A stretch of 64,000 nucleotides of DNA from Isurus oxyrinchus (taxonomy: Eukaryota), in NCBI GenBank assembly GCA_026770705.1, contig JANJGN010000006.1:35092001-35156000 (forward strand), in the 5' to 3' direction. The position numbers and the translations under genes were made by a program. Shown piece after piece: positions 16,609-58,730 of the stretch. The notes under the pieces were generated by a model that saw only the letters and a list, made by a program, of their open reading frames with translations, was not told where the DNA came from and ran no database searches. Positions within the stretch are counted from its first letter, which is position 1. The number at the start of each line of letters is the position of its first letter.

Positions 16609-17769
16609 ATGGATCCAGGTCTTGATGCTGCCTTTGTCAGGGTCCTAATACAACGGAGGAGGCAAAGGAGTGAGAGGCGACTCTGCACGCAGCTCCAGCA
16701 GGAGGGACATGGTCAAGTGGAGCCATAGCATGAACAGGAGGGTCAGGAGGAGAGACCCAGACAATAGGGATGATTCGCCAGATGTAGGGTTTATCGTCCA
16801 AGGGTCTCCTATTTACAAATGAATGAGAGGCAATGCCATGCACATCTGCACTTGGTACATCACATATGCCACATCCTTCATGAAGACCTGACACCACATG
16901 GAGTTGGAGGGTGACCGTCGCACTCAATTTCTTAGCCTCTGGTTCTTTCCAAGGATCAACAGGGGACGTGTGCAGCATCTCTCAGTCCGCAACACATCGA
17001 TGCATAAAGGAGGTCACAGATGCCCTTTACAGGAAGGCCCATCTTTATGTCAGGTTTGGTCTGGATGAAGATAGCCAGGCTGTGAGATTCACCAGCTTCG
17101 CCACCATCTCAGGCTTCCTAAGAGAACAGGATGCAATAGACTGCACCCGTGTGGCTGTATGGGCTCCATAGCAGCAGCCCCTAATGTTTATAAACAGCAA
17201 TGTACAACTGGTGTTCGATCACCGGAAGCACATATGGCACGTTTGTGCACAGTACCCTGGAGGTTGCCATATCTCCTACATCCTGAGTCACTCCCAGGTG
17301 CCTGAGATTTTCAAGGGGCCATTACGTCTGCAGGGATGGCTGCTTGAGGATAAGTGGTACCCACTGAAGTGTTGGCTGATGACACCGGTGCATTGCCCTC
17401 AGAATCGTTCCAAGGAGAGGTACAACGCTGCTCACAGCTCCGCACACTCCCTTATACAACAGACCATAGGCCTTCTGAAGATGCATTTCAGATGCTTGAA
17501 CCACTCAGGTGGCTCACTGCAATACACTCCTGACAGGGTTTCCTGCATCATCACAGTGTGTTGCACCCTTCACAATCTGGCTATGCAAAGAGGTGAACCC
17601 CAGCCAGAGGATGAACTGGAGGAGGATGAGAGCTCATTGGAGGATGAAGATCAGGAAGTCCAGGAACCTCAGGAGGTGCTGAGGGTCATGCAATCACACC
17701 ATGGAGGAAGGAAGACGTGGAAGACATGCCCATGATATGTTAATCGCTGACAGGTTCCAGGAAGAATAA
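16609..17769 (+). pseudogene. Harbinger (HARBI1-like) DDE transposase, with frameshifts and stops
   Basis: VALNFLASGSFQ...ISQSATHRCIKEVTDAL, AIDCT, YPGGCH, GWLLEDKWYP...WLMTP, YNAAH...IQQTIGLLKMHFRCL, CCTLHNL and an acidic tail. Confidence 0.9.
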
Positions 17770-24440: not shown

Positions 24441-24639
24441 TACAGTGTAATGTACATGTAATTAAAAACATCAGTCATCTTCATGATGTGAGGATTTCTG
24501 CAAATGGAAACAGATCAGTGAAGAGACCTGGGAGTAATAGTCAATCGCTTCTTAAAGGTGCATAAGCTATAAAATGGAAAGCAAATGATGCTTTCGGTTG
24601 TATACCCAGGGCTACTGATTACAAGTCAAGGAGCACAGT

Positions 24640-24745
24640 GATAAAAAAGTTCTGTCGAAGGGTCATGAGGACTCGAAACGTCAACTCTTTTCTTCTCTGC
24701 CGATGCTGCCAGACCTGCTGAGTTTTTCCAGGTAATTCTGTTTTT
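24640..24745 (+). mobile_element. Young 106-bp hammerhead-motif retro-insertion with TSD
   Basis: Direct repeat GTCAAGGAGCACAGT at 24625-24639 and 24746-24760. Near-identical to 50407-50505. Confidence 0.9.
24648..24686 (+). ncRNA. Minimal type I hammerhead-like motif with variant core CUGUCGA
   Basis: AGTT-CTGTCGA-A-GGGTC-ATGAG-GACTC-GAAA-CG-TC-AACT: stem I AGTT/AACT, stem II GGGTC/GACTC, palindromic ACGT in place of stem III. Confidence 0.65.
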
Positions 24746-25169
24746 GTCAAGGAGCACAGTACTGTGTTATATAAGCCTGTTCTGCAACTGCACCTGGTGT
24801 ATTGTGTCCAGTTTCAGTCCCTAGTTTAAAAGATGTCAAGACTTTACAGCAAATATAGAGAAGAGTAACTGGGATGATAGCTTCACTATGAGGAGAGGCT
24901 TCCGAACTCACTGAGGAGAAATGCAGGTTTAGAGGGATGTAATTGAAGTTGATAAATGATTATGAGGCTGTACAGATTCAGTTAGATGAGTTATTTGAAA
25001 TGGATTGGTCTGGTAGAGTAAGCCTATAAAATCTGCAATTTAGTTTAGATATCAGGAAGTATTCATTTTCTTATACAATCAGCATCTTTTGGAACTAAAT
25101 AATGATTTATTTGGCTGTCTTTTAAAAGGGATCTTGGTAGGTTCCTATAGAGAAGTGAGTTGTTTTAGG

Positions 25170-31690: not shown

Positions 31691-31813
31691 CCAGCGCAAA
31701 GCTGGCAATTTCTCTGTCATTTCTTCAGACATAAGAGTGCCCTTCTGCAATGACCTAGCACAATCAACCGGGTTTGGATTTAAATATCTAAACCAATATA
31801 CTTAAAAGCCCAA

Positions 31814-31950
31814 AACAAAAACAGAATTACCTAGAAAAACTCAGCAGGTCTGGCAGCATCGACGGAGAAGATGCTGCCAGACCTGCTGAGTTTTTCCAGG
31901 TAATTCTGTTCTTGTTTTGGATTTCCAGCATCCGCAGTTTTTTTTGTTTT
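31814..31950. mobile_element. Young fold-back insertion of the same family (ribozyme part absent) with TSD
   Basis: Direct repeat TACTTAAAAGCCCAA at 31799-31813 and 31951-31965. About 50-bp inverted arms (2 mismatches) around GACGGAGAA. Confidence 0.9.
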
Positions 31951-31977
31951 TACTTAAAAGCCCAAGCCTGACTTTCA

Positions 31978-32296
31978 ACAAAAGCAGAAAATGTTGGAAA
32001 TATTCATGAGGTTGGGCAGCATCTTTGGAGTGAGAAACAAACTTGAAGTTTCAGGTTGATGACCTTTCGTCAGAGCTCCCCTTTTGTTCTTTCCTCCCCT
32101 CCCTCCTTTTCACTGCCTCTCTGTGTGCTTAAAACATAATCCATTTCTAACAGCTTTCAGTTCTGACAAAGGTTATCGACCTGAAATGTTAACTTGGTTT
32201 GATTTCTCTGCCCACAGATGCTGCCTGACTTGCTGAGCATTTCCAGCATTTTCTGTTTTTATTTCAGATTTACAGCATCTGTGGTACTTTACTTTT
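31978..32296. mobile_element. Older fold-back relative with a hammerhead motif in each arm
   Basis: Minus strand of 32041-32077: AGCT-CTGACGA-A-AGGT-CATCA-ACCT-GAAA-CTTC-AAGT. Plus strand 32159-32194: AGTT-CTGACAAAGGTTATCGACCT-GAAA-TGTT-AACT. Tails point outward. Confidence 0.75.
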
Positions 32297-33436: not shown

Positions 33437-35699
33437 TGCAGAAAGTTGAGCTGCATTGAATTTAAATCAATTGCTTTTTACTTGTGTCCTGCTTCGCTCT
33501 AGTCTGTCAATCATCATGCTGTTGAACTTCACATTGGGGCTGTAGAAGTAAGACTTGCTTTTATTAAAGGGATGTTATCACTGTACTGTGGCATTTAGGA
33601 ATGGTGCAAATTTCTGACAAATCTTGCTTCGAGAACTCCATTCAATGTGCAAAACTTTGTCTGTCTAGATACAGACACTATAGTGTGAGCCGTTGTGATG
33701 TTTTTATCTTGTTTTTGAAGGTTGACAGGTACACATGAGTTCAAAGAACTGGAAATTTTTTGGAGCTGCTTCACGTACCACTAGCGTATTATGACCGGAG
33801 CTGTGCATTTATGTGCGTCAGCCGAGCTTCTGCTGCACCTACAGTCAAGTTCCGGTGGAGGAGCATGAGCAGGGGCAGCTCTGAGGAAATTCTAGGCCAG
33901 TGCCTTCTCTGCTTGCTGCAACATACGTACATGAATTGTATTTGGCAGTCTCAGTTCAGTTTCTATAGGTTACGGGTACACAGATCAAAACAAATGCTCT
34001 TAATTCACATTTAACTAGCAATAGCACTGAAAGGCCAGTAGATAGCTTGTTTGGGAAATGTTAAAATACCACTTTGGTTATGGATAAAGTATTTTGTTGA
34101 AACAGAGGAAAAGGAAATTTGCTCCACATCTAACCATGTTATATTTGACTACGTAGTGCTTGATGCTGACATTATAAGGGTTTTTTTTTAAACTTTGCTC
34201 TCATGGGGAGAAATCTAACCTACTGGGGATGCATATCAGAAATTTGATACAAAATGCAGCCAGAATATCATGCATCATGTGTGCCTGAGTTTTTGTTGAG
34301 TTCCCAGGAGGCGGAAGATGATCCCTTATATGCCTGTCACCATTGGGAATTATTGGCAATTTAAAGCAGGAGGGATTTTTATCTTCAACTCCAACATGTT
34401 TCTGAAGCGAACTCAGATTTGGTGTTTACAGATTAATTTTCAAGGATGCAGTTTTCTCCCAGCTGTTTTTAACATCGGGAAATTGCTGGGGCTGTTGGGA
34501 CAAAAAGAGGATGGTCTATTTATGAGATAACCATTGAAATTTATATCCATAAGGGCTTTGCAGGACAATAGGTAATTTATTATCTAATTTCAGGCTTCTT
34601 GCACGCACAGCATGGGCTATCTGATAAGAATCCTTTCTTGGAAGGGTTAGCTGAGTTAATTGGTAGCCCTTTGGATCAACCCTGAACAAAGGAAAGGTTG
34701 AAGGTCAATCCCCTCCACCCCACTCCCTGTGGACACAGGGAAAAAGAAAAGAAAAGAGCTATGTGTTCGAGGTCAGTTGGTGACGGTCTACTGAGAGACA
34801 ATGAAGTATGACCTCAACAGTTTACCAAAAGAGTTGACCAGGACCAGTATAACCCGTGGTCTTATTCAATGCTTTGACTGATCAAAAGCAATACATTTAG
34901 CTGCTAACTGAGACAAAGTGGCATGGCTTATTCACTGTTCTTATTTGCAAAGAAAGACCAAGGTTAAGTTAAAGTAAATGAGATTTGCTGTAACCACTAC
35001 TTTGTATGTTCACTTGTTGACTGTAAAATAAACCAGTTTAATGATTAGCTTCCAACTGCATCTTACTCAATTGCTGATCAGTCTCTGCCTATTAGAAGAT
35101 TGGAGAGTACAGATGCGATTCACACAGTATTGACAAGATGGTGCCATTATTGCTCTCTTGTGTCAAACTATTACATAACTGGACATCGGGAAATACGGAT
35201 GAACTCTTGAACATCAAAGATATGGGATCCACTGCAGTGGAACCCAAAGGACTGCCTGATGCGGACTTGATATTTGTGGCACTGTCCAAACTGGAAAGTC
35301 TTCTGGGGGCTGGAGTTCTGGCCTGGTGGCTGTTTTGTCGAATTTTCATGCATCTCCTATGGGAAGTCAGTGAAAATACTGCAAACTCTGCCTGGACCTG
35401 GAATATGTTGGACAAGGACATGAGTTCTCTTGGGACTTACCAAAAAGCTCATATAAGGAAGCAGTCTATTAACCCCATGTCATGTGCTAGTAGCTCTGTC
35501 CCTGGATGGAGAGGGAAGGCAGGGTAGAATTAGAGCTTGAATATCCAAAGATGAGCGAGGGGAATTTAAGACAATTAAGCCCCAATATAATGAGTGTCCT
35601 GGAAAGTAGCTCACTCATGCTGCACCATGTAGCCTCTGTCAGTGGGGTACACCTCAGATGTGCGCTTCAGGTGCCAATGACCTGCTTTTGTGAACCTCC

Positions 35700-37005
35700 A
35701 AAATCACTGCCCATCTTTCCATGTCCTTCTTAACTCCATGTTTGAATTCTTCCAATCAGGTTTCTGGCCCTGCCACTCATACCAAAATGGCTCTTATCAA
35801 TGTCACAAATGACATTCTCCATGACTGTGACCATGGTAACCTATTCCTCCTTGTCCTTCTTGACCTGTCTGCTACCTTTGGCACAGTTGACCGTACCATT
35901 ATGCACCAATGCCTCTCCATCTTTGTTTATGTGGGTGGAACTGCACTTGCCTGGTTCCATTCTTATCTATTAAATTATAGCCAGAGTATTGCCTGCAATG
36001 GTTTCATTTCCTGCTCCCACATTGTTACCTCTGGTGCCCCTCAAAGATCTATCCTTGGCCCACTCCTATTTCTCACCTACATGCAGCCTCTTGGTGATAT
36101 CACCCAAAAGTGCAATATCAGTTTCCATACATATGCTGTTGACTCCCAGTTCTAACTCCCCATCCTCCCTCTTGACCCCCTCCACTGTCTCAAGATTGTC
36201 AGACTGCTTGTTTGACATCGGTAGTGGAGCAGAAATTTCCTCCAACAAAATATTTGGAAAACCAAAGCCATTGTTTTTGGTCTCTGTCACAATCTCTGTC
36301 CCCCCAGCCATTGATTCCAACTCTCTCTTTTGCAACTGTCTGAGGCTGAACCAGACTGTCCACAACCTTGGTATCCTGAGATGGGCTTCCAACCACATAT
36401 CCACAACATGATTAAGACCGTCTATTACCACCATGTAACATGCCTGAACTCTGTCTCTTCCTCAGCTCACCTGTTGCTGAAACCCTCATCCATGTGGTTG
36501 TTACCTCTAAACTTGACTATTTCAATGTACTCATGCCTGCCTTTTGTAAACTTGAGGTCATCCAAAACCCTGTTGCCTATGCCCTAACTCGCACCAAGTC
36601 TTCTTCACCCATCATCCCAGTGCTCACTGACCTACACTGGCCTCTGATCCAGCAACAGCACAATTTTAAAATTCTCATCCTTGTTTTCAAATTTTTCCAT
36701 TGGCCACGCCCCTCCCTGTAACCATCTGAGATATCTGTGCCCCTCCAATTCTAGCCTCTTGCTCATGCCCAATTTTAATCATTCCACCATTGGTGGTCGT
36801 GCCTTCAGTATAACCGCCAAAGTCTTAAGCTCTGGAATTTCTTCCCTGAACCTTTCTGCCTCTCTTATCTCCTTTAAGATGCTCCTTAAAACCTACCTCA
36901 TTGCCCTAGCATCTGCTTACATGACTTGGATAATGCTCCTGTGAAATGGTTAAGGATGTTTTACTATTTTATGGTGTTAAAGGCACTATATAAATTTAAG
37001 TTTTT
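35700..37005 (+). mobile_element. L2-clade LINE, RT domain to 3' tail (decayed)
   Basis: TKMALINVTNDIL...LLVLLDLSATFGTVD...GTALAWFHSYL...GAPQRSILGPLLF...FHTYAVDSQF; TSKLDYFN; PVLTDLHWP; tail AAAGGCACTATATAAAT. Confidence 0.9.
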
Positions 37006-37509: not shown

Positions 37510-37617
37510 AAATGTCAATTCTGTTTCTTTCTCCGCAGATGCTATCAGGCCTGCTGAGTATTTCCAGCACTTTTTGTCCTTATTTCAGATTTCCAGCAAC
37601 TGCAATATTTTACTCCT
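37510..37617 (+). mobile_element. Old 3' tail copy of the hammerhead-motif family
   Basis: TTTCTCCGCAGATGCTATCAGGCCTGCTGAGTATTTCCAGCA...CAGATTTCCAGCA. Confidence 0.65.
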
Positions 37618-38197
37618 GTATCAGAAATTCTTGCTTATGAGTTGCATTTAAGTGGATGGATTTAATTGAAGTAATCTCTGCTATTATTTGCAATCGGTGT
37701 TGGTTGTTGTCCCAGCTTTAGTTTTGTTGCATTGAAGATCTGTCTACAGTAAATTGCTCATTATTGTCAGTGAGCCATTCTGTGCTGTGGATTACTTGTT
37801 TAATATCACAGGGGGCTTTCATGCAAGTAATTCATTGAAAACAAAGCCCTGTGTTTCTCCACAATCATAATATTTCTTCCCAATCCCTTTTAAATGATGC
37901 ACATGCTGTTCTGCAAAGCTTTTATCTTTCGTCAAAGCCTGGCTGTGGCAGCATTCAAGATCGGTTCCCAGGAATCGGTAAACACGGGTAGCAACATAGC
38001 ATGAATACTGTTACCATGGTACTGTGCTGCCTGGCTAACCTTGGCTTGTTTGTCAAAACAATCTTATTTTTGGGAATGTTCTATGTCTTCCAGGTGATGG
38101 ATATTCATATCAGGGAATGGAAAATATTCTATTTTCAGCCCCAAAGCCTTAATTTTCCAATTCCAGAGCAGTTCCGTCTAGAAAGGCGAATAATCCC

Positions 38198-38728
38198 ATG
38201 TTTCCAGGGAGTGTGCACGACTCCTACATCCTCAGTCAGCCACAGGCTCCTGAAGTCTTCCAGGGTCCACAGAAGCTGTGGGGACGGCACTTTGGGAACA
38301 AGGGTCACCCACAGAGCGTGTGGCTGATGACACCCGTGTGGTGGCCTCAGACTGCAGCAGAGCAAAGGTATAATGAGGCTCATGCTGCAACTCACACTTT
38401 GGTGGAGCAAACCATCGGGATGCTGAAAATGAGGTTCCGGTGCCTGGACTGGTCTGGTGGAGCCCTGCATTATAGTCCACAGAGGGTATCACGGATTGTC
38501 ATCGTCTGCTGCGCCCTTTACATGCTTGCTCTGCAACAGGGAGAGGAGCTGGCTGAGGAGGAGTTGGAGTTCTCCTCTGATAAGGACGCCCACAGGGATG
38601 AGGGTGAGGAGGTCCTCGAAGGCAACGATGATGGGGATGAAGCCCTCACACTAGTCAGACGAGGCAGGCACACTCAGGAGGCCCTCATAGCTGCTAGATT
38701 TGGGGATTATGATGACAACATGCAGTGA
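38198..38728 (+). pseudogene. Harbinger transposase C-terminal half
   Basis: FPGSVHDSYIL...GNKGHP...WLMTP...RYNEAHAATHTLVEQTIGMLKMRFRCLD...CCALY. Confidence 0.9.
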
Positions 38729-49424: not shown

Positions 49425-50281
49425 CATGGGTAGAATTTTTCGCTGAGCGGGTGGGTCTGCGCCCAACCCCCTCGAGCATAAAATATTGTGGGCAAGTGTC
49501 CCGTTGGCATCATGCACTTGTGCGATATTTTGGTTGATGGGTGCATGTGAGTGCTGGAGCTACACCTGCCATTAATTAAGAGGCCAGTTAAGGCCATTAA
49601 AAAGACAACTGATGCTGATTTTTCATTGCCCACACAACTTTGTGTTTGTTACACAGGCAAAACGAGCAGGTGGCCAGCTGACAATCTCAAAAACCTCATC
49701 CACAGGTGGGATAAAAAGGGTTAGCAGCATTGCCAGTGTGAGTAGTGAGGATTTTGGTAGACTGCTTGCTTCTAGTGACTTATTGATATATGGCAGCTTC
49801 ATCTCTGTTCGGGGATTCACTGTTAGCATTTCCAGGCTTCATTTCAGGACTTCTTGGTGTCTCCAAAGACCCCGGAGAATTCAGACCGTGTGGACCCTTC
49901 CAGGTATCAAACAGCCTTCCATTACCTTGGTAATGGGGAATGTGGCCTCTGCTGGTGGCACCTCCTCTGAGGAGAAAGAGAAGGGCAGAAGGGAGAGGAG
50001 GCCTGGTGTCCCTATGCAGCTTCCAGGGGAGGGACCTGTGGGAAGAGAAGCACAGGCACTGGGGGTGCAGGGCCAGGAGGTAGTCCAAGGCGTTAGGGGC
50101 TGCAGAACATGCCATTATCCTGCTGCCAGGGTTTACAGGTGGCAATGCAGCTACCTCAATATGTCTGAGATGCAAAGCCAAAGGAGGCTCCGCCTCTCAA
50201 GAAAGACAGTGACATCCATTTCAAAAACAGAATTACCTGGAAAAACTCAGCAGGTCTGGCAGCATCGGCGGAGAAGAAAAG

Positions 50282-50320
50282 AGTTGACGTTTCGAGTCTT
50301 CATGACCCTTCGACAGAACT
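50282..50320 (-). ncRNA. Hammerhead-like motif (CUGUCGA variant), left arm
   Basis: Exact reverse complement of 50407-50445. Confidence 0.65.
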
Positions 50321-50406
50321 TGATTTCGAGTCCAGGAAAGAGTTGAAATATAAGCTGGTTTAAGGTGTCCAGCTTATATTTCAACTCTTTCCTGGACTCG
50401 AAATCA

Positions 50407-50445
50407 AGTTCTGTCGAAGGGTCATGAAGACTCGAAACGTCAACT
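50407..50445 (+). ncRNA. Hammerhead-like motif (CUGUCGA variant), right arm
   Basis: AGTT-CTGTCGA-A-GGGTC-ATGAA-GACTC-GAAA-CG-TC-AACT; the predicted cleavage is after GUC at 50441. Confidence 0.65.
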
Positions 50446-51799
50446 CTTTTCTTCTCCGCCGATGCTGCCAGACCTGCTGAGTTTTTCCAGGTAATTCTGT
50501 TTTTGTTTTGGATTTCCAGCATCCGCAGTTTTGTTTTGTCTTTATCTCAGTGACATCCATTTGTCAGATGATTGGGCCTGAGAACAACTCCAACTGTGTG
50601 AGTGGACACCCCATACCAATGGCTTCGAAGGTCACAGTGGCTCTCAACTTCTATGCCTCCGGCTCTTTCCAGGGCTTAGTGAGGGGTCTGTGTGGAGTCT
50701 CCCAATCAGCTGTCCACAGTTGCGTCAAGCTGGTGACAGAAGCTCTGTTCAGGCAGGTATTCACTTTCATTCATTTTATACAGACGAGGTCAGCCAGGCG
50801 GAGTGAGCCAGAGGCTTTGCAGCAATTGCTGAGTTCCCCTGTGTCCAGGGTGCAATCATCTGCACACATGTGGCCATCAAGGCGCCAGCGGGTGAGTCCG
50901 GTGCCTTCATCAACAGGAAGGGCTTCCACTCCATGAACTTGCAGATAGGATGCAGATTCTGCAGTCTGTGTAAGGTACCCTGGTAGCTCCCATGACATGT
51001 ACATCCTGAGAAACTCCCAGGTGCTGAAGATCTTCAGTGCTGCAGCCTGACTGGATAGATAGCTGCTGGGTGACAAGGGCTATCTATCGAAAAGGTGGCT
51101 TATAATGCCTCTCTGCCACTCAAGAACAGAGGCAGAGCAGCGGTATAACCAGCAGCCATGCCTCCACAAGGGTGGTGATAGGTCTTCTGAAGACTCGCTT
51201 CCGATGCCTGGACCGTTCAGGGCTAGCACTACAATAGCCACCAGAGTGGGTGTCCCTGATAGTGGTTGCATGCTGCACTCTCCACAATCTGGCACTGGCA
51301 AGTCGGGTACCCACTGGAGCAAGAGGGTCTTGACGCACCTCCATAGGCCACAGACGATGAACTCAGTCGTGATTCAGAAGAGGAGCACGGTAAGGAGAAT
51401 GCTGAGGGCTTGGAGACAGACCTTTGTAACCTCCAGGGAGGCAGGGGCACCAGGGACACCTTGGTCCAACACTCCTTCAGATAGGCTGCCAAATAATTGC
51501 TACCACCTCATAAGGGTTGCCGCCTCCATCCTGGATGTCTGCAATGACCCTTTTCTTTGACCCCAAAGTCCACTCAGTGCCTGTGCACTAAAGTTTTGAG
51601 CCACCCATGTCCAGCATCACATTCTGGTGCACCCTGCAACACATTAAATAAAAAAAGTGATAATACTCAGGCCATTACAAGAAAAGAAAATTTATCTCAT
51701 GTTGACAGTCAAAACAAATTAACAGAAGCTTCTATGGTCTTCAACTCCAGATCAGAAAACAGAAATAAAACATTGCACAACATCCCTCTTGTGCTCATG

Positions 51800-52700
51800 G
51801 TGCCTTAAATTTAAATTTGTGTGTGCTATATCTTTGTTCTTCCCCCTCACTGGCACCGGCATTGGAGACAGCCTGCTAACTTTGGGGTCTTGTTGGCTTT
51901 GATGATCTTGGTGGTTGTCCTCTGGTTAGTGGAGCCTGTGCTGGCCCCGCCTGGGAGGGAGCGGCCAGTGCCATGGCTGGCATCTTCCCAGTCATCGCAG
52001 CCTCATCAGATGCCATGGTCACTGGCAGAGGTGGGGAGGAGCTGCTGCCATCATGCAGAGTGCCCTGACAGGAGCCCACAGAGATGACAGGCAGCTCATG
52101 TGCCAAGGTGAGGTCGCTCTGGACCTCCCTGCTCACATCGATGGATGGGCGCCTAGCTGGGATACTGGGTGCATCATCCATCTCCCACACAGACACTGGC
52201 CACCTGAGCTCAGTGCCTATGTTAGGGCTTGCAGGTCTGAGTGCGACCCCAAGAACTCCTGATTCTGTTCTTGGGGCTGCCTCTCCATGAGAGTCGCCAT
52301 TCTCTCAATGGAGGAGGCAGCGGGCTCAGCCATGATGGTCAACGTAGTGCTGATGCTCCGCATGGACTCCTCCATTATGGAGACCATACCCTCATGGATC
52401 TCTGCCACATGCTCTTGCTCACCCCACTGGACATCCAGCATCTGCCACCTAATGGATGACTCCAGAGGCTCATCAGCTGTCCTCGACTAAGCATTGTCCT
52501 GGTCTCCATCAGTCCTCCAACTGCTGGCGCCCTGGGTACTCTCTGCCTCCGTCTGCACCAAAAGCGGGTGTAAAGTGCCCTCAGCCACCATCTCCAGGTG
52601 GGCCATGAAGCACTCATCAGGAAACTGGGGTGGCAGGGGTGGGGGTGGTGCTGAGTGCCCACCTGACCTGCCACCATCTGCAGCTGCGTCTGAATCCATA
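51800..52700 (-). pseudogene. H4 Myb-partner gene, last-exon remnant
   Basis: WRTDGDQDNA...MLDVQWGEQEHVAEIHEGMV...AAPSQAGPAQAP, homologous to H6 60000-60748(+). Confidence 0.7.
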
Positions 52701-53147: not shown

Positions 53148-53935
53148 GTCATAGAATCATAGAATAGATACAGCACAGAATAAGGCCATTCAGCCTGTTG
53201 TGCCTGTGTTGGCCCTCTGAAGAAGCAATTCACCTACTGCCATTCCCCTTCTTTACCCGTAGCCCTGCACATTCTTTCTTTTCAGATAATAATCCAACTC
53301 CCTCTTGAATGCCTTGAATGAACATGCCTCCACTCTCAGACAGTACATTCCAGATCTTAAACACACAGTGTGAAAAAGTTTTTCCACATGTTGCTATTGC
53401 TCCTTATGCTAATTACTTTAAATCTGTGCCCCCTGGTTCTTGATCTTTGCACCAATGGGAACAGTTTTTCCCTATCTACGCTGTCCAAATCCCTCAGGAT
53501 TTGGAATACCTCTATCAAATCTCCTCGCAGCCTCCACTTCTCCAAGGAAACCAGTTCTAACTTCTCCAATCTATCTACGCAACTGAAGTTCCTCATCCAG
53601 GTAACCATTCCCATGAATCTTTTCTGCACCCTCTCTAATGCATCCACATCCTTCCTAAAGTGTGGTGCCCAGAACTGAATGCAAAATTCCAGTTGAGGCT
53701 GAACCAGTGTTTCATACAAGTTTAACATAACTTGCTTGTTTTTGTACTCTTATGCCCCTGTTGATAAAGTCTAGGATGCTGTATGCTTTATTAACTATGC
53801 TCTCAACTTGTCTACCTTCACTGATTTCTGCACATATACACCCAGGTCCCTCTGCTCCTGCGTTCCCTTTAGAATTGTACGCTTCATTTTATATTGTCTC
53901 AATGTTCTTTCTACCAAAATGAATCACTTCACACT
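53148..53935 (-). mobile_element. CR1-clade LINE 3' fragment
   Basis: ORF 53357-53728(-): LYETLVQPQLEFCIQFWAPHFRKDVDALERVQKRF...RLRGDLIEVF...TRGHRFK. CATAGAATCATAGAAT tail. Confidence 0.9.
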
Positions 53936-54270: not shown

Positions 54271-54381
54271 GAAACGTCAACTCTTTTCTTCTCCGCCGAT
54301 GCTGCCAGACCTGCTGAGTTTTTCCAGGTAATTCTGTTTTTGTTTTGGATTTCCAGCATCCGCAGTTTTGTTTTGTTTTTA
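54271..54381 (+). mobile_element. Young 5'-truncated copy of the hammerhead-motif family
   Basis: Near-identical to 50434-50545, starting at GAAACGTC. No clear TSD. Confidence 0.85.
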
Positions 54382-54559
54382 TTACAGCAGTTCAGCTGGT
54401 TTGGATTTGAAAGGAGACTTGGGCACTCTACTTTGTTGCCTGCAGCTTCACAAATTTCTCCTGGGACTGTACCACAAGGAATAGGGCTGCCCCATTACTG
54501 CTTTATCCAGATCATTTTGTAGTTTATTTCAGATTATACATCATTTGGTCATGACTAGT

Positions 54560-58199: not shown

Positions 58200-58700
58200 T
58201 CCAAGAAGGTACTCAGTACAGCTCGTCATCCTCCTGGTGGAATCTAGCGGCTATTGGGGCCTCATGAGCATGCCTGCCTCACTTATCCTGTGCTATGGCT
58301 TCTTACCTTGCAGCCTCGCTTCCTCAAACACATCACTCTCCTTCCCTTCGAGGTCCTCCTCATCAGAGAGAAGACGTGCAGCTCCTCCATCTCATCATCT
58401 GGCTAGCCCCCCCACTTTGCAGCGCCAGAGTGTGCATCACACAAAAAAGCCACGATGATCCATGAGATCCTCTGAGCAGTGTACTGGAGTGCTCCGCCAG
58501 ATCTATCCAGTCATTGGAATCGCATCTTTAGGATCCCTATGGTGTGCTCCATTAATGCTTAGCTAGAGGCGTGAGCCTCATTGTACCTTCTTTCTGCAGG
58601 AGTCTGAGGCTTCCGAACGGGCATCATCAGCCACATCCTTTGTGGGTACCCTTTGTCACTGAACAGCCAGCCCTGGGTCCTGTGTCATTCCTCGGAGATG
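58200..58700 (-). pseudogene. H5 transposase C-terminal remnant
   Basis: Minus strand QGWLFSDKGYPQRMWLMMP and RYNEAHAS. Confidence 0.8.
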
Positions 58701-58730
58701 ATCGGGATCTGCGATCTACTCAAGGTGTAT

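Follow-up and report, generated by a model that had tools for sequence, protein, structure and literature searches.

How does a perfect palindrome with a hammerhead-like motif on both strands come to lie in a decayed DNA transposon, and is it a mobile unit in its own right? The question is raised by positions 50207–50562 of the 64,000-nucleotide stretch of Isurus oxyrinchus DNA analysed here (the window; contig JANJGN010000006.1), for which a preliminary description had proposed a tiny, non-coding, ribozyme-bearing unit, derived from Penelope-like elements (PLEs) or retrozyme-like. In our reading it very probably goes back to one young insertion event of a coding EN+ PLE that left two truncated copies, for which the target was likely nicked on both strands 15 bp apart, each nick priming on one source RNA from one of two start sites ~42 nt apart.

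The arms of the palindrome (50222–50358 and 50369–50505) are exact reverse complements in 137/137 letters, are 10 nt apart (50359–50368) and are followed by a T-rich tail of 42 nt (50506–50547, plus strand), the whole being bounded by identical 15-mers, the left (50207–50221) and the right TSD (50548–50562); on rechecking, the coordinates first given for arms, spacer, tail and TSD proved exact. Each 137-nt arm of the insert (50222–50547) contains 6 CpGs, and in total 341 nt are inserted in the transposon copy. When compared with the parent element described below, numbered such that position 1 is window position 50369, the insert reads as two truncated parent copies joined bluntly at their 5′ ends: an inverted, untailed, 5′-truncated pLTR copy (50222–50368, minus strand; parent −9 to 137) and a direct, 5′-truncated pLTR copy with the tail (50369–50547, plus strand; parent 1–179). 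Read on the minus strand from 50368 to 50222, the former is identical in 147/147 letters to the pLTR of the ORF-bearing copy L033. The 10 nt between the arms are therefore not a separate spacer, as had been thought, but the next 10 nt of the parent (−9 to 0, minus strand), which are present in the inverted copy only. No microhomology was seen at the junction.

The host of the insert is a decayed copy of a PIF/Harbinger-type DNA transposon (49428–52290, plus strand, which is the part aligned to paralogs rather than the true extent), and its paralogs are ~90% identical next to the insertion site. For a comparison with the empty site 19 other copies were fetched out of 40 listed. In 18 of the 19 the 15-mer is present once with contiguous flanks, which makes it a real TSD. 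The 19th (L136, G000:C18:41192567-41195779) has its own, different insertion at the site, namely an independent fold-back of the same PLE family in the opposite orientation, ~9 nt from the homologous position; being found in 1/19 paralogs, it may hint at a target preference. Two paralog ORFs match DDE_Tnp_4 (PF13359), and we take the family to be PIF/Harbinger; four short transposase fragments from the window's own copy had no match in Pfam. The transposase frame, which had been described as resuming after the insert, is indeed continuous, but only once the 341 nt are removed, and further downstream this copy has frameshifts and stops of its own. A host gene was looked for among the 71 stop-to-stop frames of at least 105 aa in the window, a length at which short exons would escape, and these yielded just two DDE transposase matches and one weak RT match. 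The window also contains at least three further decayed Harbinger-type transposase copies (16902–17732, 38153–38725, 58382–58729), a LINE-like fragment with a weak RT match (35694–36152) and a second LINE-like fragment (53357–53749), which we presume to resemble the RT end of CR1/L2-type elements.

The parent was traced by exact pattern matching across the 4.98-Gb genome, on which all genome counts are based. A 50-mer across the hammerhead region has 2,841 matches, often spaced 3.33 kb apart, and 20 regions with such spacing were fetched (L031-L050). In these long loci the parent is a 3.33-kb tandem unit holding one long ORF; L033 and L035 contain frames of 926 codons from stop to stop. The ORF matches the RVT_1 profile with E 1.9e-7 (above the cut-off) and the GIY-YIG profile with E 8.7e-4 (below the cut-off), and DKG, YIDD, and CCHH motifs are visible in it. 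No coding parent had been noticed in the window; copies attached to an RT plus GIY-YIG ORF, for which a search had been suggested, exist elsewhere in the genome. The features of EN+ PLEs are all present, i.e., a single ORF with RT and C-terminal GIY-YIG, partial tandems forming pLTRs from which the insert derives, and an inverted 5′-truncated copy with a tail at one end and a TSD. Before GIY-YIG the parent has a CX4CxxC linker (CPRKRCNTC). According to the accessible text of PMC8557442, a CX2-5CxxC linker at this place marks Neptune and Nematis, not Poseidon; the parent thus has the linker of the Neptune clade, a clade assignment that is read from the linker, which Nematis shares, and not from an RT tree.

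The insert's arm is the end of the parent's pLTR, and its tail corresponds to the sequence that immediately precedes the ORF where copies are in tandem; the tail of another copy, L013, is letter-for-letter equal. Penelope origin with an inverted partial pLTR, as first proposed, is thus borne out, both arms being pLTR of a coding PLE. It had also been considered that such copies might be no more than randomly truncated ends of a catalogued PLE. A truncated PLE end is what was found, which bears on the novelty of the insert and not on its structure; the family itself is possibly uncatalogued. Two public read sets, which we guess to be RNA, contain 63–65% of the parent's words, a figure that is not counted as expression. 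In L033 (3389–5332) and similar loci, long antisense open frames and a second sense frame (286 codons) recur within the PLE ORF, and these are probably a by-product of the C/T-rich coding strand.

Although a 39-mer near the arm's 3′ end has 98,951 matches in the genome, a 30-mer across the central junction has only one in 4.98 Gb, at the locus itself, from which it follows that this fold-back was never amplified as a unit. Siblings were tabulated in two samples. Sample A, which spans the first 3.3 Mb of contig C1, comprises the first 30 of the 39-mer matches and 40 more regions drawn around later matches within the first 100 of the list, plus the window; its 115 anchors, after two false ones were dropped, left 113 arms. 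Among these are 36 head-to-head pairs, of which 35 have exactly one tail (34/35 without the mis-paired L118) and 28 a TSD of 13–16 nt (27/35 without L118). By comparison, random pairings reached a TSD-like match of 12 nt in 1/500. Sample B consists of the 20 long loci L031-L050 less four that are multi-copy or duplicated; of the 16 that remain, 15 are one-tailed and 13 have a TSD of 12–17 nt. Each sibling has its own truncation points in both arms. Head-to-head copies with one tail and a 13–16 bp TSD are, therefore, the norm for this PLE family.

The window itself contains more members of the family. At 31799–31965 lies a second fold-back, with arms from parent 82 and 93, one tail and a 15-bp TSD. 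A lopsided insertion at 24625–24760 consists of ~8 nt of an inverted tail end joined to an untailed copy from parent 38, with a 15-bp repeat at both ends, and a single tailed copy from parent 65, in which a clear TSD was not seen, is found at 54271–54382. Older relatives, 72–84% identical, are located at 31977–32077, 32157–32280, and 37510–37604. At the other end of the size range, the inverted arms of L044 and L050 are 2.1 and 3.1 kb long with 5′ ends within 7 and 6 nt of each other, which results in near-perfect palindromes of 4–6 kb.

The hammerhead-like motif is at 50407–50445 on the plus strand and, as its exact reverse complement, at 50282–50320 on the minus strand. By inspection it has a stem I of 4 bp, a bulged A, a stem II of 5 bp, which is also present in the predicted fold, GAAA and a palindromic ACGU, with a predicted cut after 50441. 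The minimal type I layout (stems I and II, bulge, G10.1-C11.1, GAAA, palindromic stem III, UH cut site) is thus complete, but the core, CUGUCGA, deviates from the conserved CUGANGA in that U replaces A6 (A6U). This is not a peculiarity of the locus: when the rest of a 32-nt pattern is kept fixed, A6 is present in 111 of 78,724 matches genome-wide, indicating that the PLE lineage spread with U6, and in 0/73 sampled arms. A search of 50000–50800 against Rfam (E ≤ 10) returned no hammerhead family among 17 matches; these are mostly miRNA hairpin models, all of the miRNA ones below the gathering score, and were dismissed as reflections of the palindrome. Folded as 46 nt, the motif does not exceed its shuffles in stability (z 0.08), and the same holds for the arm-plus-tail folds (z 0.42 and −1.25). 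Of the hammerhead first described on both strands, the layout therefore stands, by virtue of the palindrome on either strand, whereas the core lacks one defining feature, and because of A6U the designation "ribozyme-bearing" is doubtful. In the accessible text of PMC3088659 a natural A6C core is reported to have low activity and low activity is cited for changes at position 6, A6U being unnamed in that text.

It should be noted that 0 of 63 short arms start at positions 70–78, around the predicted cut, which indicates that the templates were uncut, as was the case with an anole element in vitro. The texts searched, largely openly accessible main texts, report neither A6U in PLEs nor a 5′-end hot spot at a transcription start. 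Of the older relatives in the window, those at ~31977–32077 and 32157–32190 have CUGACGA or CUGACAA by eye. One short fold-back elsewhere in the genome (G000:C4:163102678-163102846) has the rare A6 in both arms, which can be due either to a shared template or to arm-to-arm conversion.

The whole insert has a predicted fold of −280 kcal/mol (z −38.5), which 0/100 shuffles equalled. This agrees with the earlier prediction that the motif would be hidden in any read-through RNA: according to the fold, transcription across the insert would give a 137-bp duplex that encloses both copies. The two arms also have TATA-like boxes, at 50375–50381 (plus strand) and, as the exact reverse complement, at 50346–50352 (minus strand), which may have a promoter role. 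Since the two boxes face outward, RNA started from either would be without the other arm.

The box at 50375–50381 lies 32 nt upstream of window position 50407 (parent position 39), at which 5′ ends of copies accumulate. In a set of 63 arms with 5′ ends within positions 1–97, from which three were excluded for edge or subfamily effects, 34 ends are at 36–46, ten of them at position 39, and just 6 at 13–35; two ORF-linked copies start at 38 and 53. In 40/40 arms retaining both motifs, a TATATTT box is found 29–32 nt upstream of the position-39 A, and the initiator-like word is good in 10 of the 40 and poor in 30. We infer from this a transcription start at ~39, with run-off of reverse transcription that began in the first pLTR of the transcript. 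The accessible text of PMC3846280 describes a pLTR with TATA and Inr motifs. A TATA-linked start is, however, not universal among PLEs, since the promoter of the Drosophila element is internal and TATA-less (PMC2377424, accessible text). Two other readings of the hot spot were discarded: a splice acceptor, as the copies retain the AG and have no common upstream exon, and hammerhead cutting, for which the position is wrong. In public contigs over 50340–51200, loose ends were seen at 50507–50510 and, in one run from a related organism, at 50407, a weak match to the family's end points.

How could two such copies have come to be joined? The arms end at parent positions 137 and 179, and the mechanism is read from end products only. 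Of the two 3′ ends at the target, that of the top strand would prime at the untailed site and that of the bottom strand at the end of the tail; their products would stop 10 nt apart near one 5′ point and then be end-joined head to head, and gap filling would yield the TSD. The element's RNA would not be cut at the hammerhead during copying. Indeed, both arms cross the hammerhead site, which argues for a template uncut there, and both pass position 39, so that it was probably the downstream pLTR, in a long transcript, that was copied. Neither arm contains the other, since 10 nt are found only in one and 42 nt only in the other, and thus neither is a plain self-copy. A one-tail rule together with a narrow TSD length is what is expected to be left over if both nicks prime, one per site. 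In vitro, the PLE protein from anole cleaves and extends both strands and starts reverse transcription at two adjacent internal sites bounding the tail; it is a predicted dimer, hammerhead cleavage is not needed, and the later steps of integration were left unvalidated (PMC11167929). We predict that the insert is a dead end, as it lacks an ORF and nothing points to its re-mobilisation.

Over 40 pairs there are 148 arm-to-arm differences in 21,275 sites, a figure to be read with the fact that loci picked for paired matches are included, so that the set is not a random sample. Common to both arms of a pair are 21 letters that are absent from all other sampled copies, and the arms of L050 differ at 2 positions in 2,710 nt, yet by ~1% from L033. 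As far as can be judged from such letters, this shows that the arms of one insertion share a source template. For 9 non-CpG arm differences both letters are found in other copies, and some pairs may therefore have had two templates or undergone recurrent changes. The 5′ ends of 2/22 long pairs are within 10 nt of each other (permutation p 0.025), with a rank correlation in long pairs of 0.39 (p 0.07), and among 16 short pairs the untailed arm is the one extending further in the 5′ direction in 10, with 3 reverse cases and 3 ties. Fold-back copying, or later conversion between arms, would account just as well for the closeness of 5′ ends and for the private letters that two arms have in common.

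The second arm could thus also have arisen by fold-back self-priming of one cDNA strand or of an antisense template, the tail then coming from the antisense template or from a short cDNA primed on the other strand. We regard this as possible, if on the unlikely side. Antisense self-priming is proposed for head-to-head PLE repeats in the accessible text of PMC3846280, and besides the 21 shared private letters it would suit that in many pairs the two ends lie only a few nt apart and that the untailed arm is longer at the 5′ side in 10/13 untied short pairs and in this insert. It accords poorly with a junction that has no microhomology for a fold-back primer, and a cDNA copied from sense RNA, if primed at the untailed site, has no tail for which to serve as template. 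Many long pairs differ at the 5′ end by hundreds to 2,000 nt, and lopsided inserts with an inverted tail of 8–60 nt (24625–24760 in the window; L117) look like two separate primings. Priming from both nicks remains the preferred reading.

That the insert is instead a non-autonomous ribozyme-bearing mini-element, retrozyme- or MITE-like, moving as a fold-back unit, is very improbable. Short fold-backs are very common in the genome, and for animal retrozymes an origin from PLE pLTRs is reported (bioRxiv 10.64898/2026.07.22.740005, accessible text). MITEs or fold-back DNA elements are, however, represented by many copies with the same ends and interior, whereas here the junction is unique and siblings differ in both truncation points. 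Non-LTR retrozymes are defined in the same text as tandem repeats in direct orientation, each unit of which has its own hammerhead, amplified as units, and the locus is one inverted pair, with A6U in its core. With a coding parent in the genome as well, the picture of a tiny mobile unit had to be given up. Perfect palindromes can also be assembly artefacts, and among the matches listed no piece from four public contig sets crosses the junction or bears on an empty allele, in runs of more than 40,000 records each that are swamped by paralogs. Nevertheless, an assembly or library fold-back would not create a TSD whose sequence paralogs have just once, would not put a tail on one side as in 35/36 siblings and would not leave 10 parent bases on one arm only, and there are older siblings with diverged arms; we consider an artefact hardly credible.

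As to age, the zero arm differences and the full identity to ORF-bearing copies support assignment of the insert to the youngest subfamily as judged from its letters. It had been called very recent, of which "young" holds and "very recent" goes further than a date allows: among sibling pairs compared over at least 90 nt, zero arm differences are found in 4/19, this insert included, conversion could erase differences, and 137 identical nt give by arithmetic a divergence bound of only ~2%.

The insert is ordinary for its family, and its architecture is already published: the canonical EN+ PLE insertion comprises a head-to-head inverted 5′-truncated copy, a tail at one end and a TSD around the whole (accessible texts of PMC3846280, PMC8557442, and PMC8969392). 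With the PLEs of Arkhipova et al., 2013 (PMC3846280) and Craig et al., 2021 (PMC8557442), insofar as their texts were accessible, the family also shares TATA-/Inr-like pLTR motifs, partial tandems and a single RT-GIY-YIG ORF. It differs in that the copies in the insert are so short that only pLTR is left, in a TSD of 13–16 bp as compared to 8–10 bp in the rotifer examples, and in a tail of 42 nt as compared to 30–40 bp. PAc, the Poseidon of Anolis carolinensis (Frangieh et al., 2024, PMC11167929), has in common with what is proposed for the parent the two adjacent RT starts bounding the tail, cutting and extension of both strands, and a hammerhead upstream of the starts whose cleavage is not required. 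However, its start sites are inside the ORF and not, as here, upstream of the first in-frame ATG, Poseidon is without the CX4CxxC linker before GIY-YIG, and the parent's core is A6U. Metazoan PLE hammerheads (Cervera and de la Peña, 2014, PMC4209133) likewise have a short stem I, a bulge between 9 and 10.1, G10.1-C11.1 and a palindromic stem III; in the present family U is at position 6 in >99.8% of the counted matches, whereas the core variant in the accessible part of that paper is U3-A8, not A6U. Non-LTR retrozymes, in the text cited above, share with the insert that they are non-coding, pLTR-related and have a type I hammerhead motif.

The locus as such matters little, since it is a decayed DNA transposon in a window without a host gene among the frames examined. 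The interest of the family is modest: its young head-to-head copies, which number thousands, make it possible to study the completion of PLE integration by counting, be it of tail asymmetry, TSD length, variants between arms, or 5′ ends. In addition, that so successful a lineage has a non-canonical core puts directly to the test whether cutting is a requirement for PLE ribozymes, and perfect hairpins in their thousands could, if transcribed, enter small-RNA or editing pathways. Taken over the family, we tentatively suggest, with less than even confidence, that each insertion consists of two products primed on opposite strands ~14–15 bp apart, one per RT start site, from one source RNA; that synthesis of many of these ends by run-off at a TATA-linked transcription start where the hammerhead begins on its 5′ side, which would yield SINE-like and fold-back by-products of 100–140 nt; and that ~10^5 copies spread with an A6U hammerhead uncut in the templates, the motif being a protein-binding or promoter-edge structure rather than a ribozyme.
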